In this document: one piece after another, positions 3,801-19,323 of the stretch
Layout of the letters: each line of letters begins with the position of its first letter
How positions within the stretch are numbered: position 1 is the first letter of the stretch
IMG/VR virus record: IMGVR_UViG_2778261687_000006
Span: 1 to 19,839 of that record
Origin: a virus
Taxonomy: Duplodnaviria > Heunggongvirae > Uroviricota > Caudoviricetes
Direction: 5' to 3' (one strand)
DNA length: 19,839 bases
Program-made: the position numbers and the translations under genes
The notes under the pieces: generated by a model
The model's input: the letters and a program-made list of their open reading frames with translations, nothing else
The model's database searches: none
Told to the model about the DNA's origin: nothing

Positions 3801-3802
3801 TA

Positions 3803-3955
3803 TCAGCCCTCCCATATCTCGTTATCGTTGGCCACATCGCGAGCTTCTTTGCTGACGAAAGCCCACTTAATGCCTTCCTGTAAGGTGCGGAACTTCCAGC
3901 TCATGAATCCGCATGCAGTAACGCAGTACCAACCGTTGATGATTTTCCACTGCAT
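3803..3955 (-). CDS. Small 50-aa ORF, first gene of the leftward early operon; not in the ORF track
   Basis: Hand translation MQWKIINGWYCVTACGFMSWKFRTLQEGIKWAFVSKEARDVANDNEIWEG; GAGG 9 nt upstream; stop TGA 3803-3805 lies 2 nt from the next start (TGATAATG). Confidence 0.3.
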   Translation of the reverse strand: MQWKIINGWYCVTACGFMSWKFRTLQEGIKWAFVSKEARDVANDNEIWEG

Positions 3956-3974
3956 AACTTGTTACCTCGGTCTG

Positions 3975-3989
3975 TTACCGTTTAGGTAA
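3975..3989. promoter_or_regulatory. Dyad operator-like site TTACCGTTTAGGTAA
   Basis: Inverted half-sites TTACC / GGTAA with a 5-bp spacer, overlapping the start of the leftward transcript. Confidence 0.5.
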
Positions 3990-4017
3990 TAATTATGCGT
4001 ATGTGGTTTGATGTCAA
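3989..4017 (-). promoter_or_regulatory. Candidate leftward early promoter (pL-like): -35 TTGACA at 4012-4017 (minus strand), -10-like TAATTA near 3989-3994
   Basis: Perfect TTGACA on the minus strand, about 16 bp spacer, A/T hexamer; flanked by dyad sites at 3975-3989 and 4037-4051. Confidence 0.4.
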
Positions 4018-4036
4018 TAGATATGAGTTAAAAAAA

Positions 4037-4051
4037 TTACCCGTTAGGTAA
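4037..4051. promoter_or_regulatory. Dyad operator-like site TTACCCGTTAGGTAA
   Basis: Same TTACC-N5-GGTAA dyad, upstream of the pL-like -35. Confidence 0.5.
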
Positions 4052-4060
4052 TCGAATAGG

Positions 4061-4086
4061 CAATAAAAAAGCCGCCATAAGGCGGC
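4061..4086 (-). terminator. Rho-independent terminator for the repressor-like gene
   Basis: On the minus strand: GCCGCC-ttat-GGCGGC hairpin followed by TTTTTTATTG, directly downstream of the stop of the 4109..4693 gene. Confidence 0.7.
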
Positions 4087-4108
4087 TTACTTACTGAAAA
4101 ATATGGTT

Positions 4109-4693
4109 TTATTGTTTGTTTTTTTCGTTCTGGTTGATGACAAATTCAATGTAACTTTCGATCTTTGCTTTCTCGGTTTCGGGTAACAATGCGTAGCGCG
4201 AGCGATCATAGTTGATGGTCGCAGGGTCGTGCGGGTGAATCAGTAATTCATAGCCGTGACGCCCGAATGCGGATGCAACATTCTCCAGGGTGGAAATGGA
4301 AACGCTGACCTCATTGTTTAACAGGCGGCTGATTGTCACCTGGGCGACGCCGGATGCGCGGTGTAGTTTTCCCTGCGTTGAAAGGTCGCGGCTTTCGCTC
4401 ATCCAGCGTTCCAGGTTGTGAGCCGCCAACTGACCAATGTCGCTTGGGCCGACAGGCTGAAAACCTTCCTGAGAAAGCGAGCGATCGATATCAAGCCAGT
4501 TACGGGGTTTATTGGCGGCAGCTTCAATTTTTCGTGCAACCTGGTCGCCGATAACCTTCTTGCCAAGAGCCCAGCGGTTTACCAGATTTGCCTGAGTTCC
4601 AAGTTTTTCAGCCATCCGCGTCTGAACACCATTGAATTCACGGTCGATCAAGTCGTTGAGATTTTGCCTGCGGACGTCCTGGATACTTTTCAT
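4109..4693 (-). CDS. Phage repressor-like protein with two XRE-type HTH domains, no peptidase S24 domain evident
   Basis: 194 aa; two HTH-like segments (TRMAEKLGTQANLVNRWALGKKVIGDQVARKIEAA and LHRASGVAQVTISRLLNNEVSVSISTLENVASAFG). Divergent from a Cro-like gene with operator repeats between. No Ala-Gly/Ser/Lys autocleavage signature seen. Confidence 0.65.
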   Translation of the reverse strand: MKSIQDVRRQNLNDLIDREFNGVQTRMAEKLGTQANLVNRWALGKKVIGDQVARKIEAAANKPRNWLDIDRSLSQEGFQPVGPSDIGQLAAHNLERWMSESRDLSTQGKLHRASGVAQVTISRLLNNEVSVSISTLENVASAFGRHGYELLIHPHDPATINYDRSRYALLPETEKAKIESYIEFVINQNEKNKQ

Positions 4694-4748
4694 TTTCTGG
4701 AAAATCGCCTCATATCTGAATCAGAAGATGATTCAATTTAAAGCAATA

Positions 4749-4822
4749 TTACCCAACAGGTAAATGCACCTCACGGGTAACTATCCTTGATTTTTGTTAC
4801 CTTATAGGTGAATATTTATTAT
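4749..4822. promoter_or_regulatory. Immunity-region operator/promoter cluster: three dyad sites (4749-4763, 4766-4780 degenerate, 4797-4811) and a PR-like promoter (-35 TTGTTA 4794-4799, -10 TATTAT 4817-4822)
   Basis: Three TTACC-N5-GGTAA-type sites spaced about 17-30 bp apart between the divergent genes; the third sits in the spacer of a plus-strand promoter 26 bp upstream of the Cro-like ATG. Confidence 0.5.
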
Positions 4823-4847
4823 CTGAAATAAATATCAGGCAATAGCT

Positions 4848-5078
4848 ATGAGCGATAACGGACATTTCGATTTCAAAAAGCACTGGCTTGCACTTACTCC
4901 GGATGAGCGTGAAGCCTTCGCACAGGAAGCCGGAACGACGAGTCACTATATCCAGACTCACTTAACAGGTAAGCGCAAAATGCCAGGTAAGGTATTGATG
5001 GATGGGCTTTTTAAAGCCTGTAAATCAAGACAATGGCTGCGCTCAAAAGCAGAACTGGCATACTTCTTCTACTCATGA
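4848..5078 (+). CDS. Cro-like small HTH regulator
   Basis: 76 aa, divergent from the repressor-like gene; HTH-like segment TPDEREAFAQEAGTTSHYIQTHLTGKRKMP; followed directly by an intrinsic terminator. Confidence 0.55.
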   Translation: MSDNGHFDFKKHWLALTPDEREAFAQEAGTTSHYIQTHLTGKRKMPGKVLMDGLFKACKSRQWLRSKAELAYFFYS

Positions 5079-5100
5079 TATCCAGCCACAACCCTCTGTA

Positions 5101-5122
5101 GACCGCCATCCGGCGGTCTTTT
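5101..5122 (+). terminator. Rho-independent terminator after the Cro-like gene
   Basis: GACCGCC-atcc-GGCGGTC hairpin followed by TTTT. Confidence 0.6.
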
Positions 5123-5133
5123 CATATCTATTC

Positions 5134-5148
5134 GTACCTCAAAGGTAA
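5134..5148. promoter_or_regulatory. Dyad operator-like site GTACCTCAAAGGTAA
   Basis: TTACC-N5-GGTAA family member just after the Cro terminator; an ATATGGTT box follows at 5160-5167. Confidence 0.45.
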
Positions 5149-5161
5149 TAAAAAACCAAAT

Positions 5162-5422
5162 ATGGTTGATCTTTTTTTTGTGTCAGCACAAAATAACCGT
5201 AATCCCAATACCAATAACAGGGCTTACCATGGAAATCATTACACGTATTTCGCTGTGATGCTCGCCACCGGAGAGATGGAACTGCACGAAGTGAAAGGTT
5301 TCTGGACCGACGACGCCAGGGTGAAAACCAAAGTCGCCGCAGATCAGTATCCGTTCCGAATCATCGGGGTAACGGTTAAACCAAAGAAAGCAGGTGGTGG
5401 CTGGAACATCGAAGAGTTCTGA
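5162..5422 (+). CDS. Hypothetical small protein; start codon uncertain (ATG 5162, or internal ATGs giving about 48-55 aa)
   Basis: ORF track entry; the first ATG lies inside the conserved ATATGGTT box and lacks an RBS. Coding status doubtful. Confidence 0.3.
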   Translation: MVDLFFVSAQNNRNPNTNNRAYHGNHYTYFAVMLATGEMELHEVKGFWTDDARVKTKVAADQYPFRIIGVTVKPKKAGGGWNIEEF

Positions 5423-5483
5423 ATCGACGATCTTTTTAGTTATCAATGTAATCAATAAGTTATGTGGATAAGCGAGGGTAAAG

Positions 5484-6197
5484 ATGGAAAGTAATATCAA
5501 AGGGTTAGTTTCCGCCGGGCATGAGATGGCTTCGGAACTGAAAGCAGAATGTGGTGCCGTTGATATGCGCAGTGTGGCAAAGCTGATCAGCGATTTGGCA
5601 ACGCAACTGGAAGTGCAACTGGTGCGTGCTAATGCGCTGGCCGAAGACCACCAGAGAGCCATTGAGTCAATTAAACAGGCTGATTCGGCTGTTAAGTTGG
5701 CACACGAGAAGTTTTCGGCGCTGGCTGCGGAGAATGCAAGACTGAAGGCCGGGGCTATGTATTTCTCATATGGCTCTGAATTTAGTTTCGAGTGTCACAA
5801 AACTGCTGAGGAGGCTATCGCTGCTGCTGAGGCTGCAATTGACGACTATAGAGGCGATGCTTGCGATGGATGGAGCGAAGAGGTCGAAAGCATTTGCTGG
5901 GGGGTAATTATTCAGCAGGCAACCAAGGTCGGTGAACGCAAGAAGAGGAAATGCGACAGAGTATCACCATGGATTGAAAGAGTTTGTGATTATGAGCTTC
6001 GACCTAATGTCGAAACCCCAGCCACCGATGCTTTCCTTGCTGAAGTTCGGGCGCAGGGGGTGGATATGGCTCGTAACGCGATGATTGATTTTGTTGATGG
6101 TGAAGTTGGGCCAAACAAGAACGTTCCGGGGCTGATTAGAGGCGCAGAGATATGCGTAAGTATTGCTGAACAGCTTCGCAAAGGAGGCAACCAGTGA
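5484..6197 (+). CDS. Hypothetical phage early protein with coiled-coil N-terminus (possibly Ea22-like)
   Basis: 237 aa; RBS GAGGG before the ATG; heptad-like Ala/Glu-rich N-terminal region; stop overlaps the start of the next gene. Confidence 0.55.
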   Translation: MESNIKGLVSAGHEMASELKAECGAVDMRSVAKLISDLATQLEVQLVRANALAEDHQRAIESIKQADSAVKLAHEKFSALAAENARLKAGAMYFSYGSEFSFECHKTAEEAIAAAEAAIDDYRGDACDGWSEEVESICWGVIIQQATKVGERKKRKCDRVSPWIERVCDYELRPNVETPATDAFLAEVRAQGVDMARNAMIDFVDGEVGPNKNVPGLIRGAEICVSIAEQLRKGGNQ

Positions 6198-6613
6198 GCG
6201 AAATTAATTACCAGGCACTGCGTGAGGCGGCGGAACGTGCAATTCCAGCAATGGAACGCCTGTTAATGTTGCCAGCTGATGATGATTTGTTAAGTGAACA
6301 GGAACTTAAAGATTACGGTGTGGATATTGATGCGCTCAACGCCTTCAAATTTCTGGCCGGACCAGAAACCGTGCTGGCACTACTGGATGAACGGGAAAGG
6401 AACCAGCAATACATCAAATCCCGCGATCAGGAGAACGAGGATATTGCGCTAACGGTTGGGAGGCTGCTAATCGAAAACGGCCGGCTTGTTGCCGATACGC
6501 TACGCCACTTAGCTGATAACGAAATCGACTCTGATTATTTTGCTATCACCTCAACGAATGAGAACGGTACTGAAATTGATCATGAGATGGCTATTACTGA
6601 GCCGCCAGGATGA
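6194..6613 (+). CDS. Ead/Ea22-like family phage protein (recollection-based assignment)
   Basis: 139 aa; GTG start with strong RBS AAGGAGG 6 nt upstream; N-terminus MSEINYQALREAAERA and VLALLDERERNQQ resemble lambdoid Ea22-like proteins as I remember them. Confidence 0.55.
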   Translation: MSEINYQALREAAERAIPAMERLLMLPADDDLLSEQELKDYGVDIDALNAFKFLAGPETVLALLDERERNQQYIKSRDQENEDIALTVGRLLIENGRLVADTLRHLADNEIDSDYFAITSTNENGTEIDHEMAITEPPG

Positions 6614-6761
6614 TGCACGTGTGCGCTGGCGTATAAAATCGATCAGCAGAAAACGGTGCGGTAAGTGCGGCGAGAGAGTTCCTGTTAATTCATGCCCGTG
6701 TAATGGTGACTCGCAATGCTGGGTGAATAAAGGCTGGCATGAAACGAAATTAATAGTGTGA
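6540..6761 (+). CDS. Possible small Cys-rich (zinc-ribbon-like) protein; coding status uncertain
   Basis: ORF overlaps the 3' end of the previous gene in another frame; C-terminal CGKCGERVPVNSCPCNGDSQCW has CxxC ... CxC spacing. Its stop codon lies inside the GTGACATGTCAC palindrome. Confidence 0.25.
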   Translation: MLSPQRMRTVLKLIMRWLLLSRQDDARVRWRIKSISRKRCGKCGERVPVNSCPCNGDSQCWVNKGWHETKLIV

Positions 6762-6769
6762 CATGTCAC
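6758..6769. repeat. Perfect 12-bp palindrome GTGACATGTCAC, copy 1
   Basis: Read directly; overlaps the stop codon of the 6540..6761 ORF, upstream of the terS terminator. Confidence 0.9.
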
Positions 6770-6810
6770 GAGTAGATTATGCATGATGAATTTGATGGGT
6801 TTTGAATACT

Positions 6811-6837
6811 GCCGCCAACTATGGCGGCTTTATTTTG
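6811..6837 (+). terminator. Terminator-like hairpin upstream of terS
   Basis: GCCGCC-aactat-GGCGGC followed by TTTATTTTG; same stem sequence as the 4061-4086 terminator. Confidence 0.5.
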
Positions 6838-6843
6838 CATGGT

Positions 6844-6872
6844 ACTATTACCACAACGGTAACTATTACCAC
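6844..6872 (+). repeat. Tandem direct repeat ACTATTACCAC (6844-6854 and 6862-6872) immediately upstream of terS
   Basis: GGTACTATTACCACAACGGTAACTATTACCACGG read directly; includes an inverted GGTAA-cta-TTACC arrangement. Confidence 0.8.
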
Positions 6873-6879
6873 GGTGGTT

Positions 6880-7476
6880 ATGATGCCTGCTGAACCTAAA
6901 ACCTATAAACGCAAATCAACGCAATTTAAGCCACTAACAGCAATGCAGGAGGCTTATTGCCAGTCATACATCAAAACGCCTGAAAACCAGACTCAGGCAG
7001 CGATTAACGCAGGATTTTCCCCAAATACAGCGGCAGTTAAAGCCAGTGTCATGATGCGCGATGAACGCATTCAAAAACGGATTGCCGAGTTGATGGAGGA
7101 GCGCAACAAACGAATGCGCGTCAGTGCTGATTACGTTCTCATGCGCCTGGTGGAGATCGACCAGATGGACGTGATTGATATCCTCAACGACGATGGGAGC
7201 CTTAAGCCAATCCGCGAGTGGCCGAAAATCTGGCGCACTACGCTTAGTGGCTTTGATCTGTCGTCGACCATCATGAACATGAACGAGGATTCGATAGAGA
7301 CAATCCTCAAAAAAATTAAATGGCCTGACAAGGTGAAGAACCTTGAGCTGATTGGTAAGCATGTTGATGTCAACGCGTTCAAAGAACGTCTGGATGTTAA
7401 TGTGAATGTGACAATTGCTGATCGCATAGCAGCAGCCAGGAAGCGACTCAAAGAACGTCAGGATGGTAATCAGTGA
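6880..7476 (+). CDS. Terminase small subunit (TerS)
   Basis: About 198 aa from the ATGATG at 6880; positioned immediately upstream of and overlapping the large terminase gene; basic helical N-terminal region (TAVKASVMMRDERIQKRIAEL) consistent with a DNA-binding small terminase. The track's TTG-start extension translates a direct-repeat region. Confidence 0.65.
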   Translation: MMPAEPKTYKRKSTQFKPLTAMQEAYCQSYIKTPENQTQAAINAGFSPNTAAVKASVMMRDERIQKRIAELMEERNKRMRVSADYVLMRLVEIDQMDVIDILNDDGSLKPIREWPKIWRTTLSGFDLSSTIMNMNEDSIETILKKIKWPDKVKNLELIGKHVDVNAFKERLDVNVNVTIADRIAAARKRLKERQDGNQ

Positions 7477-8948
7477 CAGATACAGCGTTATCTCCTGAAG
7501 AGCAGTTGATCGAGGATATTGCAGGGTTCACTCACGATCCGCTTGGCTATGCCCTCTATGCGTTCCCGTGGGGGGAAGAGGGGACTGAACTGGCACATGC
7601 TACCGGTCCACGTCAGTGGCAGGCTGATGCGTTCCGAGAGATACGTGATCACCTGCAGAATCCAGAGACGCGCTATCAGCCGCTTATGCTGGCACGTGCT
7701 TCTGGTCACGGTATTGGTAAATCCGCATTCATCTCAATGCTGATCAACTGGGGCATGTCCACTTGCGAGGATTGTAAGGTCGTGGTGACCGCCAATACCG
7801 ACAACCAGCTACGAACGAAGACCTGGCCGGAAATTATCAAGTGGTCGAACCTTGCTATCACGAAAGACTGGTTCACCTGTACCGCTACCGCGATGTACAG
7901 CAATGATCCTGGGCACGACAAGCGGTGGCGAGCTGACGCAATCCCCTGGTCTGAGCACAATACTGAGGCGTTCGCCGGACTACACAACGAGCGCAAACGT
8001 ATCATCGTGGTATTCGATGAAGCGTCGAACATTGCGGATCTGGTGTGGGAAGTTGCCGAGGGTGCGCTTACGGACGAAGACACTGAGATTATCTGGGTGG
8101 CGTTCGGAAACCCGACGCGTAATACCGGACGTTTCCGAGAATGTTTCCGCAAATATAAACACCGCTGGAAAACTGCGCAGATTGACAGCCGGACGGTTGA
8201 AGGCACTAACAAACAGCAGTTGCAGAAATGGGTTGATGACTACGGGGAAGACAGCGACTTCGTTAAAATCCGTGTGCGTGGCATATTCCCTGATGCATCT
8301 GAATTGCAGTTTATCCCTACCGGTCTTACTGACGAGGCAATGAAACGGGTGGTAACCGCTGCGCAGGTGGCACATGCTCCGGTGATAATCGGCGTTGACC
8401 CGGCATACTCCGGCGTTGATGACGCGGTGATATACCTGCGGCAGGGGCTGCACAGTAAGGTGCTGTGGACTGGCAACAAGACCACCGACGATCTGATTAT
8501 GGCGAAGCGTATCGCTGACTTTGAAGACCAGTATCAGGCCGACGCGGTGTTCATCGACTTCGGTTACGGTACTGGCCTGAAGTCAATCGGTGACGACTGG
8601 GGGCGCACATGGCAACTTGTTCCGTTCGGTGGCGCGTCTACTGACCCGCAGATGCTCAACAAGCGTGGGGAGATGTTCAACTCATGTAAGACATGGCTGA
8701 GGCTGGGCGGGATGCTGGATGACCAGGAAACAGCGGACGACCTGTCGACGGCAGAGTACAAAGTTCGCGTGGACGGTAAAATCGTTATCGAACCGAAGGA
8801 AGATATCAAAGAGCGACTTGGGCGTTCGCCGGGGAAAGGCGATGCGCTATTGCTGACGTTTGCTTTCCCTGTGTCGAAGCGCCTGCGAATTCCCGGTCAG
8901 CAGAACCAGCAAGGCAAGGCCATCACAGATTACGACCCGTTTGCGTGA
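7473..8948 (+). CDS. Terminase large subunit (TerL), ATPase plus nuclease
   Basis: 491 aa; Walker A-like ASGHGIGKSAF, Walker B-like RIIVVFDEASN, C-terminal acidic nuclease-like motif VIIGVDPAYSG. GTG start overlaps the terS stop (GTGA). Confidence 0.85.
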   Translation: MTDTALSPEEQLIEDIAGFTHDPLGYALYAFPWGEEGTELAHATGPRQWQADAFREIRDHLQNPETRYQPLMLARASGHGIGKSAFISMLINWGMSTCEDCKVVVTANTDNQLRTKTWPEIIKWSNLAITKDWFTCTATAMYSNDPGHDKRWRADAIPWSEHNTEAFAGLHNERKRIIVVFDEASNIADLVWEVAEGALTDEDTEIIWVAFGNPTRNTGRFRECFRKYKHRWKTAQIDSRTVEGTNKQQLQKWVDDYGEDSDFVKIRVRGIFPDASELQFIPTGLTDEAMKRVVTAAQVAHAPVIIGVDPAYSGVDDAVIYLRQGLHSKVLWTGNKTTDDLIMAKRIADFEDQYQADAVFIDFGYGTGLKSIGDDWGRTWQLVPFGGASTDPQMLNKRGEMFNSCKTWLRLGGMLDDQETADDLSTAEYKVRVDGKIVIEPKEDIKERLGRSPGKGDALLLTFAFPVSKRLRIPGQQNQQGKAITDYDPFA

Positions 8949-8949
8949 T

Positions 8950-9690
8950 TTATTGCTTATTTTTCACGGCTTCAGCAATCATTCTCTCAGCCTGTGATGT
9001 ATATGTTTTTCGCAAGGGTTCATGGCCCATATGCAATACGATACCTTCCTTTTCTTTTTCCTTTAATTCTTGTATGAGATTATTTATTTTGGCCTCCCTA
9101 TCTTCAAGCATTCTGGCGGACTTTTCTGCCTCAATCTTTAACGCTGCAGCCACTGATTGCATGTTTTCCAGCTTCTTATTCAATTCCAAAACCTTATCGG
9201 AGAGCCTATCTCTTTCCGCCGTTAGCTCACCCATCCTGGCCTGTGACTCCGTAATTCTTTCCTTCATAGCCTGTATGTCTTTTTCGGCGCCAGTCTTAAC
9301 TTTGTCGTATGTCACATCGTGCTTTGCCTTCAGGCGCTGCAGGCGTGTGGCGCGATGAATGCGCTTGGCCTTCCGGTGGTTCTCTATCGAATCGTAATTA
9401 TCAAGAGGTTTGGCTTGCCACTTTGAAATCACGTTGTTGATCCAGGGCATGCCGCCGCACAGGATTATTGCTGAAACACATGGGAATGCTAATACCGTTT
9501 TCCAACTGCTATTACTGGAAATGTAGGTGATCTTGTCGATGATGCTGGAGTCGCTGAGGAGTAAGTATAAAATCGACTTCCAGTTAAAGGCGCACCATGA
9601 CAGTGCGAACGCTCCAAACACTGGATTTCTGACCCTTTGCGCAGCGGTATTAACGGTTGAAGATAGGTATTCTTTAAGTGATTCAAGCAT
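8950..9690 (-). CDS. AT-rich cargo gene: membrane-anchored coiled-coil protein of unknown function (candidate superinfection-exclusion or abortive-infection factor)
   Basis: 246 aa; two hydrophobic segments near the N-terminus, then a long charged heptad-like region (KERITESQARMGELTAERDRLSDKVLELNKKLENMQ). AAGGG RBS. Convergent with terL with a 1-nt gap. Visibly AT-rich compared with neighbours. Confidence 0.55.
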   Translation of the reverse strand: MLESLKEYLSSTVNTAAQRVRNPVFGAFALSWCAFNWKSILYLLLSDSSIIDKITYISSNSSWKTVLAFPCVSAIILCGGMPWINNVISKWQAKPLDNYDSIENHRKAKRIHRATRLQRLKAKHDVTYDKVKTGAEKDIQAMKERITESQARMGELTAERDRLSDKVLELNKKLENMQSVAAALKIEAEKSARMLEDREAKINNLIQELKEKEKEGIVLHMGHEPLRKTYTSQAERMIAEAVKNKQ

Positions 9691-9720
9691 GTCCAGGCCC
9701 TTTTAGGTTTTTTTCTGATT

Positions 9721-9735
9721 CTACCTTTAAGGTAA
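9721..9735. promoter_or_regulatory. Dyad operator-like site CTACCTTTAAGGTAA in the promoter of the 8950..9690 gene
   Basis: Lies in the spacer of a candidate minus-strand promoter (ATGACC ... TAGAAT) about 40 bp upstream of the start codon. Confidence 0.45.
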
Positions 9736-9757
9736 TCTTCGGTCATTATGAAAAACG

Positions 9758-9803
9758 TATCCCTATGAGGGGATAATGTCGTTGATATCCTCTGATGAGG
9801 ATA
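9758..9803. promoter_or_regulatory. Two tandem dyads of a second type, TATCC-N8-GGATA (9758-9775 and 9786-9803)
   Basis: TATCCctatgaggGGATA and TATCCtctgatgaGGATA, 28 bp apart, upstream of the 8950..9690 promoter. Confidence 0.4.
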
Positions 9804-9829
9804 AAACAAAGCCAGCTCATCGGCTGGCT
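9801..9829 (-). terminator. Rho-independent terminator after the 9850..10221 gene
   Basis: On the minus strand: AGCCAGC-cgatgag-GCTGGCT hairpin followed by TTGTTTTAT, about 20 nt past the stop codon. Confidence 0.5.
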
Positions 9830-9833
9830 GTTT

Positions 9834-9845
9834 GTGACATGTCAC
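9834..9845. repeat. Perfect 12-bp palindrome GTGACATGTCAC, copy 2
   Basis: Read directly; 5 nt beyond the stop of the 9850..10221 gene, before its terminator hairpin. Confidence 0.9.
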
Positions 9846-9849
9846 GGTG

Positions 9850-10221
9850 TTATTGCTCGCTTAACTTCTGCTTCAGCAAGTAACCTTCAAGCATCCAGAT
9901 TTTGTTTACAGCATTCTGCCGGGCAATCTTCCGACCAATTTCCGCATCAAAGTTTTCCGGGCTTGCACAGGCGCTCTCTCCGGTGACGGTGAAGCCGTTG
10001 CGCAGCACCAGAACGCAGAACGTCAGCAGAGAAAGTGATTCGTGCGGCTGGTAGTTTACCTCTCCGCCAGTATGTTTCGCTTTTATGGCTACGCCAAAGA
10101 CACCATCTTCTGCTGTGAAATATGCCTCCTGAGCAATAATGCTCTCGATATGGTCTGGCGTAACGCGCGGCGCGGCTAAACCTTTAGCCTGAATTTCAGA
10201 TTCAATGTCTTTGTCACTCAT
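9850..10221 (-). CDS. Conserved hypothetical phage protein (123 aa)
   Basis: ORF with RBS AAGGTGA; sequence feels familiar from enterobacterial prophages but I cannot name the family with confidence. Confidence 0.55.
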   Translation of the reverse strand: MSDKDIESEIQAKGLAAPRVTPDHIESIIAQEAYFTAEDGVFGVAIKAKHTGGEVNYQPHESLSLLTFCVLVLRNGFTVTGESACASPENFDAEIGRKIARQNAVNKIWMLEGYLLKQKLSEQ

Positions 10222-10424
10222 AGTCTAATCTCACCTTAAAAAAATGCCCGGCGAACCGGGCGAACTGGAAGCAATGAGTTATGCCTTCCGTGGCTGTACT
10301 GGTTTACAGCATGAAGTCATCGCAATGGCGTCCTGCTGTAAAAAGGGCGGTGATAGTCCTTCAAGGGAAACCATCACCGCCAAGCCCCTGGAACTTCTGG
10401 CATCACGGTCCTTAGGCGTGATTC

Positions 10425-10501
10425 TGGCGTGGCATGCAGGATTCGAACCTGCGACCAACCGCTTAGAAGGCGGTTGCTCTGTCCAACTGAGCTAATGCCA
10501 C
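10425..10501 (-). tRNA. tRNA-Arg (anticodon UCU), phage-encoded
   Basis: Hand-folded cloverleaf on the minus strand: acceptor GTGGCAT/ATGCCAC, D-arm GCTC-AGTTGGACA-GAGC, anticodon arm ACCGC-CTTCTAA-GCGGT (U33, anticodon TCT, A37), variable loop TGGTC, T-arm GCAGG-TTCGAAT-CCTGC, discriminator G, encoded CCA. Acceptor and anticodon stems differ from host argU as I recall it. Confidence 0.85.
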
Positions 10502-10823
10502 AACGCTGAGAGCACTTAGCCTGTTAAGGCGCCACACTTTGTCGCGGCTCCATAAATGCTCTCATCGTTGCACCCTCGTCTCTTCCGAGGCGTCACACCG
10601 AATCGCCGGGATGGTGAATCCCCGTGCGCGGAATAAAACCGCTCGACTTGCACATTCCGGCTACCTGGTTCGTTTGCCCGAGCAAGGGAGGGTGCCCCTT
10701 AAACGTATCCAGACCGCTATCGTCGCATGTGCCATACGCCGTACTGCTCAACATAAAAGCTCACTCCACCTGTTCAATTTAACGACAAGCCAGTCAGGTT
10801 AGTAACCGGAATGAACTCTTTTG

Positions 10824-10838
10824 TTACCTGAAAGGTAA
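10824..10838. promoter_or_regulatory. Dyad operator-like site TTACCTGAAAGGTAA
   Basis: Lies beside a minus-strand TTGACA (10855-10860) and about 70 bp upstream of a -10-like GATAAT (10899-10904) for the plus-strand operon. Confidence 0.45.
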
Positions 10839-10928
10839 TAATTTGCGCATTAAATGTCAACTGTCTACGACAAGTAAATCATATGTGGTTAAATTGGTGA
10901 TAATTTAATTGCGTACGGAGTCATTGAT

Positions 10929-11186
10929 ATGTGCATGGGTAGCTCACCATCAGTGCCTGCAACACCAGAAGTTCAGGCAGCACCACAGGAGCAGGATGCC
11001 GCCGTTGTTGATGCCCGCGACGAAGAAACTCGTCGCCGTCGCGCTGCTGCTGGTCGTAGTTCTACGCTGCTTGAGGCGGTGCAGAACCGCATGAACGATA
11101 TGTTCAATAAGTCGAATCTCTACCAGTCGCTGCCGGTGTTCAGCGGTATCTGCGTGTTAACTACTCCGTCGCAACTGGCCCACTAA
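10929..11186 (+). CDS. Hypothetical protein (85 aa); may be part of a frame-disrupted larger gene
   Basis: RBS GGAG 8 nt upstream of the ATG. A second frame stays open from 11111 to 11267 without any start codon and translates to protein-like sequence. Confidence 0.4.
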   Translation: MCMGSSPSVPATPEVQAAPQEQDAAVVDARDEETRRRRAAAGRSSTLLEAVQNRMNDMFNKSNLYQSLPVFSGICVLTTPSQLAH

Positions 11187-11279
11187 CGGCTGGCGAATTC
11201 ACTGCTGGTATCAGTCTTGATGTTGATGCCAATACGCCGTATCCGATCCGCTCAAAAGTAACTGGTTAAGGTGATATCG

Positions 11280-11630
11280 ATGTCAGGTGAGAAACCAAGA
11301 TACCGCGTTCTGCGCCTCTCTCATATCCATAACACTCTGTGGCCGGAGGGGGCAGAAATCGAATACGAAGGTGAGCCTGGTAGCGCACTGGAACCTGTTA
11401 ACGATGCAGCCAGACAGGCAAAAGCAAAGGTAGCAGGAAAGGTGTCAATGGCAGCAACCAGTACCAAAATCATCAACGATGTGTCAGATGATGGTGAGCT
11501 GGATAAGCTCCGTGAAGAGTACGAATTGCTCTTTAACGAGAAGCCACACCATAACGCCAAAGCCGAAACGCTCCGCGAGAAGATCGCAGATAACCGGTTC
11601 TGGTATTCAGCGTGGAACATGGAAAGGTGA
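11280..11630 (+). CDS. Hypothetical protein (116 aa)
   Basis: ATG at 11280 with RBS GGTGA 6 nt upstream; acidic, helical-looking sequence. The +1 frame stays open across its last 150 nt. Confidence 0.5.
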   Translation: MSGEKPRYRVLRLSHIHNTLWPEGAEIEYEGEPGSALEPVNDAARQAKAKVAGKVSMAATSTKIINDVSDDGELDKLREEYELLFNEKPHHNAKAETLREKIADNRFWYSAWNMER

Positions 11631-11679
11631 ATTAACGAGAAGTGTTTTCCTGTTTAAATCGTTCCCTATCTCGGTGGTT

Positions 11680-12240
11680 ATGCGTCACTGGTCACGCGCT
11701 ATGGGTATGCCGTCTGCTGGTGGGCGTGCGGCATATATTGCGACGTTTATTGCCAGTACGACCATTCTTGGAGCTTTGTCGCAGCAACTTAACGACCTTG
11801 CGTCTGGTCGTAATCCTCGCGAGATGACAGGAGAAGATGCCGCAAAATTCTGGCTTGGTGCTCTATTGAAAGGTGGTGGTCTTGGCCTTTACGGTGACTT
11901 TTTATTGTCAGATCACACTAGGTACGGAAGCGGCGCGCTGGCGTCGATGCTTGGCCCGGTGGCTGGTCTGGTTGATGACGTAGTGAAGATTGCTCAGGGC
12001 ATACCGTTAAATGCTGTGGAAGGGAAGAGTGAGCAGACTGGTGGTGATCTGGTGAAGCTGGGGAAAGGTTTGATGCCAGGTGCGAATCTCTGGTACTTGA
12101 AGGCGGCTCTCGATCACATGATCTTTAACCAGATGCAGGAGTATTTTTCACCAGGCTATTTGCGTAAAATGGAGCAACGTTCGAAGAAAGAGTTTAACCA
12201 GACATACTGGTGGCGACCTCAGGATGTCACTCCGCAATAA
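11680..12240 (+). CDS. Hypothetical protein with Gly-rich hydrophobic segments; start poorly defined (ATG 11680 or GTG 11674), possible frameshift fusion with the upstream ORF
   Basis: Long open frame 11479..12240, protein-like only after about 11640; no well-spaced RBS at the candidate starts. Confidence 0.45.
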   Translation: MRHWSRAMGMPSAGGRAAYIATFIASTTILGALSQQLNDLASGRNPREMTGEDAAKFWLGALLKGGGLGLYGDFLLSDHTRYGSGALASMLGPVAGLVDDVVKIAQGIPLNAVEGKSEQTGGDLVKLGKGLMPGANLWYLKAALDHMIFNQMQEYFSPGYLRKMEQRSKKEFNQTYWWRPQDVTPQ

Positions 12241-12249
12241 GGATGAGAA

Positions 12250-12390
12250 ATGATTGCTTTTATTCTTGTTGTATTTGTGCTTGTTGCCCTTGGCGTTATG
12301 AATCGTAAATGTATCATTGAAGACGGTGAATTTGCTGTAGCAGTTGTTTTGATATTATCTGGTGTAGCAGGGTACATAGGTTTGTCATAG
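12250..12390 (+). CDS. Small hydrophobic peptide (46 aa, two predicted membrane segments); not in the ORF track
   Basis: Hand translation MIAFILVVFVLVALGVMNRKCIIEDGEFAVAVVLILSGVAGYIGLS; RBS AGGA upstream; stop TAG at 12388-12390. Confidence 0.35.
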   Translation: MIAFILVVFVLVALGVMNRKCIIEDGEFAVAVVLILSGVAGYIGLS

Positions 12391-12397
12391 CTTGAGT

Positions 12398-12409
12398 GTG
12401 ACATGTCAC
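12398..12409. repeat. Perfect 12-bp palindrome GTGACATGTCAC, copy 3 (extended form TGTGACATGTCACA)
   Basis: Read directly; in the convergent gap between the 12250..12390 ORF and the 12434..12691 gene. Confidence 0.9.
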
Positions 12410-12433
12410 AGGCCGCTTTCGCGGCCCTTAAAT

Positions 12434-12691
12434 TTACCGGATTTGTTTTCGTAATTGTTCGGCACAATAGTCGAGATGTGTTTGCAGATCCTGCATAGAC
12501 ATCTGTGAGCTGGTGACGTAGTTAATCAGTGCAGTCAGTTCGGCAAGTGGGCCATCGACATTAAATCCATCCTTATCGAGATCCCGGAGTAATTTCATCA
12601 AGTGCGATCCCTCCACCAGTGACCTGACGCCTCCCGGCGTGTGAATCCTTTCGGTAAATCCGTCTTCCAGTGGATAGTGATACTGCTGCAT
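12434..12691 (-). CDS. Hypothetical protein (85 aa from the ATG at 12691)
   Basis: ORF track 12434..12757 with a GTG at 12757; the internal ATG at 12689-12691 has GGAG about 8 nt upstream. Divergent from the tailspike gene. Confidence 0.45.
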   Translation of the reverse strand: MQQYHYPLEDGFTERIHTPGGVRSLVEGSHLMKLLRDLDKDGFNVDGPLAELTALINYVTSSQMSMQDLQTHLDYCAEQLRKQIR

Positions 12692-12767
12692 CTTATCTTC
12701 TCCATGCAATAACTGTATATTTATGCAGTAGCAAATAATTTGTTTGCTATCCAGCACGTTTTGCGAA

Positions 12768-12782
12768 TCACCTGAAAGGTAA
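12768..12782. promoter_or_regulatory. Dyad operator-like site TCACCTGAAAGGTAA
   Basis: In the divergent intergenic region between the 12434..12691 gene and the tailspike gene; followed by the ATCCATATGTGGTT box (12809-12822) and a -10-like TAGAAT (12833-12838). Confidence 0.45.
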
Positions 12783-12886
12783 TATCTGTTCGTATTTATG
12801 GTTTATCTATCCATATGTGGTTTTTCAGGTAATAGAATAACCGGATATGCGGCGCAACGGGTGCTGCGACTATCTGGAGATTTAAC

Positions 12887-15571
12887 ATGACGGTCTCAAC
12901 CGAAGTTGACCATAACGAATATACAGGTAATGGCGTTACGACTTCATTTCCTTATACCTTTCGAATTTTTCAGAAGTCAGACCTGGTTGTGCAGGTTGTT
13001 GATCTGGATGAAAATATAACCACTCTTGTGCTTGATACTGATTATTCGATTACAGGTACTGGTGGATACACGGGGGGGAATGTTGTTTTATCAACTGCTT
13101 TAGGCAATGGGTATAAGATTTCTATTTCAAGAGAGTTGCCGGTTACCCAAGAAACAGACCTAAGGAACCAGGGGAAGTTTTTTGCAGAAGTGCATGAGGA
13201 TGCATTTGATAAGTTAACTATGCTTGTTCAGCAGGTAAGAAGTTGGTTTAGTCTGTCGTTAAGAAAACCATCCTTTGTAGCCAACTATTATGACGCCCTG
13301 GGCAACTATATCAGAAATCTCAGGGATCCATCTCGGCCGCAAGATGCTGCTACAAAGAACTATGTAGACAGTATTTCTGAAACCAATCTCAACAGAACGC
13401 TAAGAACACCTGAACCTATACCCACACTTCCATCTGCCGCTGTCAGGGCGAACAAGATAATAGCCTTCGATAATAGTGGGTCTCCTTTTGTAACATTGCC
13501 GCCATCTGGTTCTGCCACTGATGTTCTTGTTGAATTAGTGAAACCAACAGGTGCCGGGTTATCAGGTTATAGCGATTCTATCCAGTATCCTGACGGTACT
13601 GTTGGTAGTGCCATTAAAGATCAGAATTTCAGGAAAAAAATAATCTACAAACTTCCATTTCAGTTCGCTGGGTATTCTGATGCACTGGCGGCAATTGGAG
13701 CTGGAAGCATCATATACCCGCAGGGTGCTGACTATGATGATGATGGTCTACTCTTCATTAACTATGTGCCTAATGCTGGAGGGGCGCTTAGGGTTATAGT
13801 TGTTTATAACCAGGCAGGAGAGCAAGTAACGTGGTTTTATAGTCCAAACAGTAGTAATCAGTCTGTGGCTATATATGGCGGAAGTTCATCACGTAGATTG
13901 TATGACAGACGTCTTGGGGATGATTTTGTTTATTATTATGACATAACCACATTACCCGCAGCAGGTAGCACGCTTTCAGGGCACACAATAACGACAATTC
14001 AGTCGGCTGGATCACATATGTGCATTGAGGGTAATTTACTCTTCTGCACATTAAACGCGACACCAGTAGGATTGTCACAATCACAGACTGTTATAAATTC
14101 TTATCGTCTTGATACAGGTGAGAAGCAGGGAACAATAAATGTCTCTCAGATGCTTACAGGGTTTGCAACTCCAGAGCTCTCCCCTACCTACTATTACATG
14201 GTATGGAAAATTCAGGGTATAGCATACAAAAATGGGATCCTTCATATAGGCGTAGGTGGCAGTTATCGTCCTACATTTGATGATGCAAAATACCCTGTTC
14301 ATGATTACGGAGTCCTCAGAGTGTCACTCTCTGGTGAGTTAATAGACCACTCTGTTGTGAAATCAGATAAGTTGATGACTTATCTGGCATCAAACGGTTG
14401 CACCGTCTCAAGAACAGAGTCAGAGGGATGTTTCAAGCACCCTGACGGCACTATCCATTCAATTCTTATCGGTGATATGGCTGAATCATCTCCTAGCACA
14501 CCCAATGGCATTGTTATAATGAGGGAGTTTTCAAGAGATGGGTTTGACATGCTGGATGCCGCTTCAGGATACTGCCCGATACCAACATATGGATTTAATA
14601 GGCTCATGCGTTCGGAGCATGGGGAACTGCGCGATCCAGTCTTAAATACAGTCTTCAGCAGTGTTACTCAAATTCTTGATTTAATGGCTTCATTAAACAT
14701 AACTGAGTTCTCTTGGTTTTCAACCATTGCTCCTTCGCTCACCACGATACCTGGTCTTAACTACGTAATAGGACAAATTTACCATGTTACTAATATGAAC
14801 AATGCAGGATTCATTATTGAATCCTCCGGTACTGTACTTGGGCTAGAAATTTATTCCGTAGTTGGCAGAATTGGGTCATGGACAGCTACAAGGCGCTCAT
14901 TGTCAGGAACAAAGCTTAATATTAATAATTCAGGTGGTTTAGGCAAAATATCATTTACAACGTCAACAGGAAAAGAAGTTGGCATCGCTCAAATAAACTA
15001 TACCGGAACCTCTACGCCTCTTGTTATCGGCTCAGGGGGTACTTTAAACCCTAATGCTATTTTCTTCTTCACAAATCCGACAGTGACAAGTGAAAGTGGT
15101 GGGACTCAATCTCTTCAGATTTACAGTGATCAGGTATTGCCTGGCGTCGCTAGCGCGCAGTCTAACGGGAGTGCATCATTTAAATGGACTCAGGTCTACG
15201 CCGATTCTGGTTCCATTAACACATCTGACAGAAGAAAGAAGACAGATTTCGAGGATATAAGTGAAGCCGAAAAGCGTGTGGCTATCAAGATTAAGGGAAT
15301 GATTTGTCGGTACAGAATGAAGGATGCGGTAGCTATTAAAGGCGATGGCGCAAGATATCATATAGGTGCAATTGTCCAGGATGTTATCTCTGCGTTCGAG
15401 GATGAAGGGCTAGATCCCATGCGTTATGGGATGGTTTGCTACGATAAGTGGGATAAGAAGGAACCAGAATATGATGAAAATGGAATCATGACATTCTCAG
15501 GTTGCGAAGCTGGTGATGGTTACTCTTTGAGATATGATGAGATGTTATGTTTCATTATTTCTGCTATTTAA
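12887..15571 (+). CDS. Tailspike / tail fibre protein with C-terminal intramolecular chaperone (peptidase S74-like self-cleaving domain)
   Basis: 894 aa; N-terminus MTVSTEVDHNEYTGNGVTTSFPYTFRIF resembles the T7-gp17-type particle-binding domain and, from memory, epsilon15-like tailspikes; Ser/Thr/Gly-rich central region; C-terminal ...INTSDRRKKTDFEDISEAEKRVAIKIK... matches the endosialidase-type chaperone domain. RBS GGAG. Confidence 0.85.
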   Translation: MTVSTEVDHNEYTGNGVTTSFPYTFRIFQKSDLVVQVVDLDENITTLVLDTDYSITGTGGYTGGNVVLSTALGNGYKISISRELPVTQETDLRNQGKFFAEVHEDAFDKLTMLVQQVRSWFSLSLRKPSFVANYYDALGNYIRNLRDPSRPQDAATKNYVDSISETNLNRTLRTPEPIPTLPSAAVRANKIIAFDNSGSPFVTLPPSGSATDVLVELVKPTGAGLSGYSDSIQYPDGTVGSAIKDQNFRKKIIYKLPFQFAGYSDALAAIGAGSIIYPQGADYDDDGLLFINYVPNAGGALRVIVVYNQAGEQVTWFYSPNSSNQSVAIYGGSSSRRLYDRRLGDDFVYYYDITTLPAAGSTLSGHTITTIQSAGSHMCIEGNLLFCTLNATPVGLSQSQTVINSYRLDTGEKQGTINVSQMLTGFATPELSPTYYYMVWKIQGIAYKNGILHIGVGGSYRPTFDDAKYPVHDYGVLRVSLSGELIDHSVVKSDKLMTYLASNGCTVSRTESEGCFKHPDGTIHSILIGDMAESSPSTPNGIVIMREFSRDGFDMLDAASGYCPIPTYGFNRLMRSEHGELRDPVLNTVFSSVTQILDLMASLNITEFSWFSTIAPSLTTIPGLNYVIGQIYHVTNMNNAGFIIESSGTVLGLEIYSVVGRIGSWTATRRSLSGTKLNINNSGGLGKISFTTSTGKEVGIAQINYTGTSTPLVIGSGGTLNPNAIFFFTNPTVTSESGGTQSLQIYSDQVLPGVASAQSNGSASFKWTQVYADSGSINTSDRRKKTDFEDISEAEKRVAIKIKGMICRYRMKDAVAIKGDGARYHIGAIVQDVISAFEDEGLDPMRYGMVCYDKWDKKEPEYDENGIMTFSGCEAGDGYSLRYDEMLCFIISAI

Positions 15572-15576
15572 AAAAT

Positions 15577-15600
15577 GCCCCGTAGAGGGGCTTTTTTTTT
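15577..15600. terminator. Bidirectional rho-independent terminator shared by the tailspike and acyltransferase genes
   Basis: GCCCC-gtaga-GGGGC hairpin flanked by AAAAA upstream and TTTTTTTTT downstream. Confidence 0.75.
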
Positions 15601-16588
15601 ACTTGGCTATCACCCTATTTAACAAAGGAGTTTTTGAAAGTATCACAGCTATCAACAGGGACGCAAAGACATAAAATATAGTTGCAACAGGTATTCCCCA
15701 TGCATAATTTGATACTGGAGCTATTTTCCATGTTATAAATATAATAATAGGATGTATAAGATAAATTCCAAATGCATATTCGGAAATTAGAGTTACAAGT
15801 TTATTTGCATTTTTGCTTATTCTGTCTGCGTATCCAATGCAGGCGCAGGTTGTTGCTATTGCTGTCATGCCAACAATGGGGCTAAAGTTGCTTAGGTTTA
15901 CTCCTTTGATCCCATGAATCAATATAGCCTTATTTGTAAAGACACATATAACCGCAAGGATAACAGCAGTTAACGAAATGAAAGCGCGTAATTTTATGAT
16001 ATGGCTTTCAAGTCGTGCAACTATACATCCGGCAAAAATATAGAACATTAATGTACTTACAAATGGAATATCTATAGATGGTGCATTAGGAATAAAATTC
16101 TTTAGTTGTGGGTATAAAGAATTTCCATAGAATAGAATTAAAAATATCATCACGTTATACCGCAAATCCATGCGTTGGCATCCAATAATTATCATCGGGA
16201 GAAACATGTAAATCGCAATATAATGATACATAAACCATAGATGAACAGCAGATGGCTTCATGATATTAAAGCTGCTTACTGAAGTATCTTTAAATATAAT
16301 GTAATAAGATGCATATATTACCCACCAAAATACAAGAGGGACAAATAAGACATTAAAACCCTTTTTAATGTAATCATGGAATTCGAATTCCTTTTTATGG
16401 TAGTAAAGAAACCCTGTTATAACTATGAAAATACCAATGCATTGCTTTGATATGGCGCTATATACGTTAGCCCAATCCCAATCAGGCGAAGACTTTGCAC
16501 CAACTGGACCAGCGGCAACATGCAGCAACACCACCAGCACAATGGCGATGAAACGAGCTAAAACTACGCCATAGTTCTTCTCATTCAT
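15599..16588 (-). CDS. Acyltransferase family 3 integral membrane protein, likely O-antigen acetyltransferase (lysogenic conversion)
   Basis: 329 aa, about 10 hydrophobic segments; N-terminal VLARFIAIVLVVLLHVAAG matches the acyltransferase-3 signature (R-x-x-x-H in TM1); visibly AT-rich; sits directly after the tailspike gene as serotype-converting acetylases do in P22-like/Sf6-like phages. Confidence 0.8.
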   Translation of the reverse strand: MNEKNYGVVLARFIAIVLVVLLHVAAGPVGAKSSPDWDWANVYSAISKQCIGIFIVITGFLYYHKKEFEFHDYIKKGFNVLFVPLVFWWVIYASYYIIFKDTSVSSFNIMKPSAVHLWFMYHYIAIYMFLPMIIIGCQRMDLRYNVMIFLILFYGNSLYPQLKNFIPNAPSIDIPFVSTLMFYIFAGCIVARLESHIIKLRAFISLTAVILAVICVFTNKAILIHGIKGVNLSNFSPIVGMTAIATTCACIGYADRISKNANKLVTLISEYAFGIYLIHPIIIFITWKIAPVSNYAWGIPVATIFYVFASLLIAVILSKTPLLNRVIAK

Positions 16589-16641
16589 TTTAATATTTAT
16601 CCAATATTTTTAATGGGTTCCACAATCATTAACTACAATAT

Positions 16642-16656
16642 ATACCCATAAGGTAA
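16642..16656. promoter_or_regulatory. Dyad operator-like site ATACCCATAAGGTAA
   Basis: Between the acyltransferase and lysis genes; followed by ATCCATATATGGTT (16685-16699) and a -10-like TATGAT (16706-16711). Confidence 0.45.
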
Positions 16657-16752
16657 TTTAGTTAAGAGTTATCAGAGGTAAACTTATCCATATATGGTTT
16701 ATTGTGTATGATGGACTTACCAACTAAGGGGGTTCATTATGCACAGTAAACG

Positions 16753-17166
16753 GTGGCTGATATGTCAGCTCAGCTAACCAGTGAGTCTTTAAATCAGTGG
16801 CTTAGCATGGGTTCTCTGGCTGCTGTCATTGTCGGGGTTCCTCCAGAGGTCGCTCTTGGTGCTTTATCCGGCGCGGTAATATTTATTACCTCTGCCGTTG
16901 AGTATCCAATACGCCGTCGGGTTCTCCTATCGATGCTCAGCTTTCTCTGCGGGCTACTCTTCTACAAACCGACTGCATCAATTCTTATCGGCGTAGCCAG
17001 CATGATCCCAACTATCACGCAGGACTCATTCGAGAAAGGGATCGTCTTTTCTGCTGGCGCGTTCGTGTCGGCAATAGTCGCAGTACGTATTGGAATCTGG
17101 CTCTATCACCGCTCAGACAATCCACGCGATTTAATCCCTGGGAGAAAAGACGATGACAACTCATGA
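16753..17166 (+). CDS. Holin-like membrane protein (about 3 TM segments, charged C-terminus); start uncertain (GTG 16753 or ATG 16762)
   Basis: First gene of the lysis cassette; hydrophobic segments and C-terminal [19 protein letters not shown] strong SD AAGGGGG (16725-16732) is positioned for an ATG at 16739 in another frame (12-codon ORF). Confidence 0.5.
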   Translation: MADMSAQLTSESLNQWLSMGSLAAVIVGVPPEVALGALSGAVIFITSAVEYPIRRRVLLSMLSFLCGLLFYKPTASILIGVASMIPTITQDSFEKGIVFSAGAFVSAIVAVRIGIWLYHRSDNPRDLIPGRKDDDNS

Positions 17167-17461
17167 TCTGCTTTTACTTATTGCCAATGCAGTTATTTGT
17201 ACTGGCATAGCAATTCGCGTTGTCACATTCCGGCGTAACGGATCTCAACATCGAAGATGGGGAGGGTGGCTTGCTTATTTCCTTATTGTTGCTGCGGCCA
17301 GTATTCCTGTTCGTGTCGTCTATGCAATCTGGTTACGCACGCCAATGGCTGTGGATTTATCTGAGGTTATTATCAACGCTGTCATGCTTGCCGCTGTTAT
17401 TAAAACACACGGTAACGTTGTTCAGATTTTCAAAATATCGAGGTCTAAACATGGAGATTAA
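17153..17461 (+). CDS. Second holin/antiholin-like small membrane protein
   Basis: 102 aa with three hydrophobic segments; RBS GGGAG; overlaps both neighbours, immediately upstream of the endolysin. Confidence 0.5.
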
Positions 17462-18730: not shown

Positions 18731-18768
18731 ATCTTCAAGAATTATAGGATTGAAGTTACTAACATCGA

Positions 18769-19308: not shown

Positions 19309-19323
19309 GACTCCTCCTGATTA

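Follow-up and report, generated by a model that had tools for sequence, protein, structure and literature searches.

How does a prophage express a gene that lies behind two terminator-like hairpins, and what occupies the roughly 350 nucleotides (nt) between its promoter and the tRNA gene ahead of those hairpins? Both questions are raised by a 19,839-nt stretch of a caudoviricete virus (IMG/VR record IMGVR_UViG_2778261687_000006, positions 1-19,839; hereafter, the window). An earlier reading of its sequence alone (hereafter, the original prediction) had noted a minus-strand tRNA-Arg(UCU), an unexplained leader with no convincing open reading frame (ORF) before it, two terminator-like hairpins after it, and a downstream gene (9850-10221) that appeared to need read-through or antitermination. 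We found that the leader contains a conserved structured RNA, which we refer to as domain A (10571-10742, minus strand), and that relatives of this RNA are widespread in temperate enterobacterial phages. The interval is best explained as a single unit of a phiV10/epsilon15-like (Uetakevirus) prophage that is transcribed early, under the control of the prophage repressor. Its elements are ordered as follows: a promoter within an operator, a leader segment of ~80 nt, domain A, a helix module (M1), tRNA-Arg(UCU), a hairpin, terminator T1, two hairpins, terminator T2, and a gene of the Acb4 family.

Domain A spans 172 nt and is present as a single copy in the window, where it scored 133 bits (E = 3e-40) with a covariance model built from an alignment of 43 copies that are pairwise <95% identical. 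Its fold consists of a 9-bp hairpin (P1), a helix surrounding a variable hairpin (P2), and a third helix (P3) that surrounds another variable hairpin together with a 4-bp hairpin whose loop is T-loop-like. The CACC of this T-loop-like loop pairs with a downstream GGUG to form a pseudoknot, while a separate hairpin, CCUCG-GAAGAGA-CGAGG, presents a conserved GAAGAGA loop, and a long 19-mer, GGUAGCCGGAAUGUGCAAG, is both invariant and single-stranded. Among the 43 copies, 97.4% of the cells of the proposed fold are paired and 11 pairs (88 cells) have changed on both sides. By comparison, none of 500 shuffles was as good and slid registers paired just 28-47% of cells. The pseudoknot covaries as well, as CACC/GGUG is replaced by AACC/GGUU in five copies, and 50 positions of the domain are invariant. 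From these results, we are almost certain that domain A is real as a conserved structured RNA. Folding the leader as a single sequence was uninformative (z = -1.0); the structural signal comes from the comparison between sequences. It should be noted that RNAalifold offered an alternative in which the P1 loop (GCACAU) pairs with an invariant AUGUGC. Because both strands are invariant, this pairing is neither supported nor excluded by the alignment, whereas the lower P1 stem has covariation support.

The leader also contains no conserved ORF. Its sole ORF encodes 53 aa (10593-10754) and is preceded by a GGAG motif, but the frame is not conserved and is broken in many relatives, with open stretches of just 10-24 codons in loci such as L024, L027, L042, and L046. 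The 53-aa product had no Pfam or PHROG hit, and no frame on either strand is open through domain A in all 43 relatives. The plainest account of the leader would be a degraded coding sequence, a small ORF, or inert spacer, with only the tRNA being of consequence. This account can point to the 53-aa ORF and its GGAG motif as well as to the hypothetical proteins annotated over this stretch in the phiV10 and TL-2011b records. However, the substitutions are compensatory in helices and follow no codon pattern, and conservation of the sequence extends from E. coli to Klebsiella phages and reaches P1 and lambdoid phages that lack the tRNA, which together make such an account scarcely credible. Therefore, the original prediction was right that the leader has no convincing ORF, and the degraded coding sequence it had raised as a counter-possibility is not borne out by the leader frames of the 43 relatives, but its description of the leader as unexplained no longer holds, as a conserved structured RNA occupies the stretch, with a helix module behind it.

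We also examined whether the leader belongs to an RNA family that is already described. Rfam scans of the whole window at gathering scores, of positions 10100-11100 at E≤5, and of 12 related loci at E≤0.1 returned just tRNAs and unrelated families (C4 and isrK in the lambdoid phage 2H10, together with sub-threshold RprA, STnc100, and RyhB). In the scan of 10100-11100, the leader (10502-10850) matched no family at E≤5, and neither domain A nor M1 matched an Rfam 15 family at E≤0.1 in the 12 related loci. No record examined annotates domain A as an RNA, there is no Rfam model for it, and our literature search, whose coverage did not extend to key subscription papers, found no description of the family. 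The RNA svsR (PMC12803456) is a different one, located within the 3' end of cI. Thus, the leader RNA family is unannotated, whereas the tRNA was already known in phiV10-like phages.

The region in the window shares 98% identity with phiV10, with TL-2011b and the O157 typing phages 9 and 10, and with prophages of many E. coli genomes. A 901-nt query comprising the leader, tRNA, terminators, and parts of both flanking genes matched 1162 of 5426 complete E. coli genomes. The leader is among the most conserved stretches of the region, being 75% identical in a Klebsiella phage and 83% identical in 2H10, which has no tRNA. The same RNA was also found in Shiga toxin (Stx) phages of both the Stx2c and Stx2a types, in mEp460, cdtI, mEp390, and a phage recorded with a Stenotrophomonas host, as well as in many Uetakeviruses and in P1, P7, D6, SJ46, and RCS47. 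We located the invariant 19-mer, GGTAGCCGGAATGTGCAAG, in 24 genome contigs (almost exclusively from Enterobacteriaceae) and >120 viral contigs, and its 159 sites reduce to 135 distinct sequences and to 60 clusters at 93% identity. Domain A occurs in three contexts: the phiV10/epsilon15-like unit, the PL position directly after cI in lambdoid phages without N, and upstream of ban in P1, where the C1-controlled ban operon carries it after tRNA-Ile and before ban. In every context whose control is known, it lies within a repressor-controlled early operon. For at least 22 of the clusters, the gene directly upstream on the same strand encodes a cI-like repressor; among eight divergent examples tested, Peptidase_S24 was detected in all eight and a helix-turn-helix (HTH) domain in seven.

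The lambdoid context can be illustrated by 2H10. The promoter between cI and domain A of this phage carries an operator of the OR type, the same as those between cI and cro, which identifies it as PL. No N gene is annotated in 2H10, no put-like sequence was found in it, and its genome contains a single copy of domain A. The first genes downstream of domain A belong to PHROGs of unknown function, none of which is annotated as an antiterminator and none of which is N-like. For LLS, a close relative that lacks N, RNA-mediated antitermination has been suggested as possible (PMC12315714, 2025). Elsewhere in 2H10 (locus L005, 6286-6474), we noted isrK and C4 antisense RNA matches above their gathering scores inside an annotated antirepressor gene (6217-6762), which raises the possibility that this lambdoid phage carries an immI control region of the P1 type there. 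In epsilon15 (locus L007, 2540-2600), just the first ~70 nt of domain A are left; a deletion, apparently through a repeated CCCTTGATGCT, has brought the first variable hairpin and the T1 loop together. As a consequence, epsilon15 lacks both domain A and the tRNA, while T1, T2, and the gene have been retained.

The control region of the unit in the window is consistent with the same type of regulation. The -35 hexamer of the leftward promoter, TTGACA, can be read at 10855-10860 on the minus strand, where the original prediction had placed it, and is followed after a 17-nt spacer by the -10 hexamer TACCTT (10837-10832). This layout is kept in the Klebsiella and epsilon15 relatives, with the -35 retained as TTGACA or TTGACC in Klebsiella phage ST512-KPC3phi13.3 and epsilon15. 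The -10 hexamer is covered by a perfect copy of the palindrome TTACCTnnnAGGTAA (10824-10838, no strand assigned), which occurs eight times in the window (at 3975, 4037, 4749, 4797, 5134, 9721, 10824, and 12768) compared to an expectation of 0.04. Five of the copies surround an HTH repressor/cro-like gene pair (3975-5148), and TTACCTnnnAGGTAA is likely to be the operator of the HTH repressor encoded at 4109-4693 (minus strand); the epsilon15 record annotates the corresponding site as 'repressor, lysogeny'. Further copies precede a 246-aa ORF and the tailspike gene at 12887. Since the -10 hexamer is located inside a perfect prophage operator copy, the arrangement argues for an early lytic unit, which is predicted to be silent in the lysogen and to fire early after induction, rather than to be a constitutively expressed prophage add-on. 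Between the promoter and domain A is the 5' leader segment (10743-10823, minus strand), which is conserved among Uetakevirus-type relatives (GTCGTTAAAT...GGTGGAGTG.GCTT).

Downstream of the tRNA, our terminator scan identified both of the hairpins that had been noted previously, and each stem keeps its pairing through compensatory changes in relatives. T1 (10340-10381, minus strand) has a stem of 14 pairs (10381-10346) followed by CUUUUU, with compensatory changes at three pairs in nine sequences, while T2 (10238-10261, minus strand) is the hairpin GCCCGG-UUCG-CCGGGC (stem 10261-10246, six G-C pairs) followed by A and U7, with compensatory changes at two pairs (GCCCGG/CCGGGC versus GCCCAC/GUGGGC). 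As judged from its sequence, each is an intrinsic (Rho-independent) terminator, having a G+C-rich hairpin directly before a U-run. Between them are two further conserved hairpins, ACAGCA...UGCUGU and GGAAG...CUUCC, which were recognized by alignment and pair counts (10267-10339, minus strand). Positions 10225-10426 have a fold z-score of -3.1, and 10267-10339 gave a RyhB-like Rfam match at chance level only. An attenuator-type pairing between domain A and T1 was also considered and dropped, as the pseudoknot variant AACC/GGUU occurs without matching changes in T1. Terminator-like sites are common behind domain A in general: in 46 of 55 clusters, at least one is present on the sense strand 100-800 nt downstream, compared with 28% of random windows, a count that was made without ORF limits. 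The first terminator is located 241-729 nt from the 19-mer, and the intervening modules vary and can include a tRNA. In many relatives (L013 1631-1750; L051, L052, L074, L113, and others), the stretch just before T1 consists of UGCUGUGUGUAGUCUU with a terminator after it. This stretch resembles the 3' half of the host small RNA (sRNA) RprA (Rfam 50 bits, gathering score 70), and the variant is absent from the window.

The T-run of T2 ends at 10238 and is immediately followed by a Shine-Dalgarno sequence, AAGGTGA (10237-10231), and an ATG at 10221. The gap is 16 nt, close to the ~19 nt estimated previously. Together with its Shine-Dalgarno (AAGGUGA in the transcript), the gene extends over 9850-10237 on the minus strand and encodes 123 aa. 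Its product matches Pfam PF13876 (Phage_gp49_66) with E = 2.4e-35 and 121 bits (cut-off 27), and it is annotated as 'Gp49 family'. PF13876 is Acb4, anti-CBASS 4 (CBASS, cyclic oligonucleotide-based antiphage signaling system), a sponge for cyclic nucleotide signals (bioRxiv 10.1101/2024.12.30.630793). The family profile of the gene also matches the sequence of the SPO1 Acb4 crystal structure (PDB 9e4w, E = 1.1e-5), although just ~50 residues of the product align with SPO1 Acb4. By these profile matches, the gene behind T2 belongs to the Acb4 anti-CBASS sponge family, and its product would be expected to bind 3'3'-cGAMP and block CBASS. Our scan detected no promoter-like site between T1/T2 and the gene, so its expression should require transcriptional read-through. 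From this arrangement, we infer that transcription reads past both T1 and T2. Accordingly, the need for read-through noted in the original prediction is upheld by the missing promoter, whereas antitermination as its means is still conditional.

The tRNA itself (10425-10501, minus strand) is as originally described. ARAGORN reported one tRNA in the window, having the anticodon tct and an encoded CCA, and the Rfam tRNA model (RF00005) scored 73.3 bits against a gathering score of 29. It is annotated as tRNA-Arg in the records of several relatives. Its assignment to the phage also stands, as there is no integrase nearby and, in the intact relatives, the cassette is flanked by the genes for the large terminase and the portal, both of which are on the other strand. 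The AGA and AGG codons it would decode were expected to be enriched in phage genes and indeed are five to eight times commoner there: AGA+AGG accounts for 9.0 per 1000 codons in an intact relative and 14.6 in the window ORFs versus 1.8 in 43 host core genes, or 15.8% of arginine codons in the intact relative and 26% in the long ORFs of the window versus 3.6% in the same host genes, although foreign genes are generally richer in these codons. Most likely, the tRNA supplies AGA/AGG decoding to AGA/AGG-rich phage genes. Of the 67 AGA/AGG codons that we counted in the window, 25 fall in a single gene, that of the tailspike (12887-15571, plus strand), which encodes a Peptidase_S74 chaperone domain.

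Domain A and the tRNA are separated by module M1 (10501-10570, minus strand), a long helix, CAACGAUGAGAGCAUU...AGUGCUCUCAGCGUUG, with compensatory changes in eight relatives and a last pair formed with G1 of the tRNA. M1 is also present, together with a similar closing helix, in the late leader of phage lambda directly after tR' (L167 990-1140; lambda 44789-44940), from which we conclude that modules have been shuffled among phage operon leaders. The lambda stretch holding M1 carries no annotation in its record. In P1, an M1 5' strand-like sequence, CAACAGGTAAGGGCG, is located at 69066 (L006 1044) in the ban operon leader, between a dicF-like region and tRNA-Asn. The P1 sequence suggests that the same set of modules is scattered along the ban operon. 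In most lineages, the place of the tRNA is taken by a tRNA-like module, which is closed by an acceptor-like stem of 7 bp, GUUGUGG/CCACAAC. As the tRNA-Arg is present in just 5 of the 60 clusters, the tRNA is a passenger in the cassette of the RNA, not the reverse. Just 3' of the tRNA is a hairpin, AUCACG-CCUAAGGAC-CGUGAU (10402-10422, minus strand), which is nearly invariant in nine relatives and also follows the tRNA-like module in lineages without the tRNA.

How might domain A function? We tentatively propose, with somewhat less than even confidence, that it is a cis-acting, put-like antiterminator leader. The nascent leader RNA would act in cis on the transcribing RNA polymerase, as the put RNA of HK022 does. 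Upon loss of the repressor, transcription would then pass T1 and T2, and both the tRNA and the counter-defence protein would be delivered at an early stage of lytic growth. In the lambdoid phages that lack N, domain A would open the early-left operon. The variable distance between domain A and the terminators, which can accommodate a tRNA, fits a processive mechanism rather than an adjacent expression platform. A broader version of the proposal, which we regard as possible but still more speculative, is that domain A is the founding member of a new class of processive antiterminators that consist of RNA alone (or, in wider terms, of RNA-polymerase-reprogramming RNAs), unrelated to put, which would replace N in many temperate enterobacterial phages, including Stx2-converting phages, and would also drive early counter-defence genes in P1 and phiV10/epsilon15-like phages. 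Several observations weigh against an antiterminator role. Domain A has no sequence or structural similarity to put RNA, and 2H10 has no second copy in its rightward operon, whereas HK022 has putR. In P1-type phages, domain A is 2.4 kb from Pban, directly follows tRNA-Ile, and is accompanied neither by M1 nor by a terminator within 700 nt. In addition, tRNAs or tRNA-like modules flank domain A, so RNase P could free it, which would suit a stand-alone RNA as well as a tethered one, or better, and both T1 and T2 have conserved upstream sequence and resemble the 3' ends of sRNAs.

The main rival to an antiterminator leader is accordingly a stable trans-acting RNA, released by RNase P cleavage at the adjacent tRNA or tRNA-like module, which would bind a host or phage protein or serve as a decoy; additional small RNAs would then end at T1 and T2, with the downstream gene fed by leaky read-through. 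The position of the tRNA 3' of domain A in the window, of tRNA-Ile 5' of it in P1, and of the tRNA-like module with its 7-bp stem behind it in most lineages would all suit such processing, just as an invariant single-stranded 19-mer would suit recognition by a conserved partner. Processed small RNAs are known products of early-left operons, a dicF-like region is annotated in the P1 ban operon, and sequence is conserved upstream of both T1 and T2, with the stretch preceding T1 in some relatives being RprA-like at the sub-threshold 50 bits (versus 70) given above. Yet the window contains no RprA-like sequence (Rfam scan of 10100-11100, E≤5), and no target or partner of such an RNA can be named. 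Furthermore, the domain A of lambdoid phages is placed between a PL-type promoter and a terminator ahead of the early-left genes, and no other route through that terminator was found in 2H10, given its lack of an annotated N gene and of a put-like sequence. On balance, we view a trans-acting RNA as a serious but rather unlikely explanation.

Two further possibilities appear weaker. As a processing or stability element, the structured leader would form a 5' cap that shields the tRNA precursor or the mRNA from 5'-end-dependent RNases, or it would guide maturation. The M1 helix does end flush at G1 of the tRNA, domain A of P1 would become the 5' end of the ban mRNA after removal of tRNA-Ile, and the epsilon15 record predicts a nearby RNase III site. 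However, a simple hairpin would suffice for this purpose, whereas 172 nt with a pseudoknot and 50 invariant positions imply a more specific role, and 55 of the 60 lineages have no tRNA to mature, so we consider this improbable. A riboswitch aptamer, through which a small molecule would control termination at T1/T2, is more improbable still. The size of domain A, its pseudoknot, and its invariant junction nucleotides are all typical of aptamers, and terminators do lie downstream, but the distance to the first of these varies by hundreds of nt with the insertion of whole modules, including a tRNA, which leaves no shared expression platform, and domain A heads unrelated sets of genes.

The prophage in the window is degraded (5247-5250 and 11069-11600). 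Compared to an intact relative (L001), its DnaT-like and P replication genes are gone, as are most of the gp3, portal, protease, and major capsid genes, with a 67-bp fragment being the sole remnant of portal. In comparison to phiV10, there is also an additional 246-aa ORF (8950-9690; window 8945-9765, minus strand) between the terminase and Acb4-like genes. It belongs to PHROG 4780, of unknown function, and has its own promoter-like site and operator copy at 9718-9746. The tailspike gene is followed by an acyltransferase gene (15599-16588, minus strand).

The region that had resembled a stray tRNA with odd hairpins can now be re-read as a repressor-controlled early cassette with a rare-codon tRNA and a putative Acb4-type anti-CBASS sponge. 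Many lambdoid phages, including Stx phages, lack N, and the opening of their early operons is still questioned in recent genome papers; a covarying, conserved RNA located exactly at the nutL/putL position makes this question directly testable. If the proposed mechanism is true, domain A would be a second RNA that can act on RNA polymerase, with an unrelated structure. The domain A family also merits an Rfam entry, as several GenBank records annotate hypothetical proteins over it.

Among known systems, one close comparison is with putL and putR of HK022, which are cis-acting antiterminator RNAs that bind the zinc-binding domain of the RNA polymerase beta' subunit and whose action is blocked by rpoC mutations in that domain. 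Like put, domain A is a conserved structured RNA without a partner gene, and in lambdoid phages without N it is located just after a repressor-controlled early promoter and before terminators. It is also adjoined by a -10-like AACGAT, similar to the NANNAT noted at putL. Unlike put, which has ~70 nt and two stems, domain A comprises 172 nt with five helices and a pseudoknot, is present in a single copy per genome, and is found outside of the lambdoids in Uetakevirus and P1. An nhmmer search of the window and all fetched loci with putL and putR, as read from the HK022 sequence, returned just HK022 itself at E≤1, and the domain A covariance model had no match in the HK022 immunity region. With lambda, domain A shares the position of nutL after the repressor gene, and M1 is common to the unit and to the lambda late leader, where it directly follows tR', but no N-like gene was found with domain A, either in the 2H10 annotation or among the first downstream genes, and the covariance model found no domain A in lambda. 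As a lead only, the M1 3' strand, UGCUCUC/UGCUCUUU, resembles what we take to be boxA, and the GAAGAGA loop presumably resembles the nutL boxB loop, although the boxA-like stretch of M1, unlike lambda boxA, is base-paired. The tRNA likewise has parallels, since tRNA genes are carried in a phage operon leader in the ileZ-argN-argO cluster of Stx phage 933W. The P1 ban operon provides another parallel: there (Ile CAU), as in the window (Arg UCU), a tRNA for rare codons is found within a long non-coding phage operon leader, and the phage genes are enriched in the matching codons, whereas the tRNA described here belongs to an early unit that runs leftward between the genes for the terminase and the portal. 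Lastly, the EAR RNA of Bacillus eps operons promotes processive antitermination and provides the same concept, that of a structured operon RNA making polymerase ignore downstream terminators, but its host, sequence, and context are unrelated and the Rfam scan of the leader gave no match to it. Overall, domain A is structurally unrelated to the cis-acting antiterminator leaders, and these are nonetheless the elements to which it is closest in kind.

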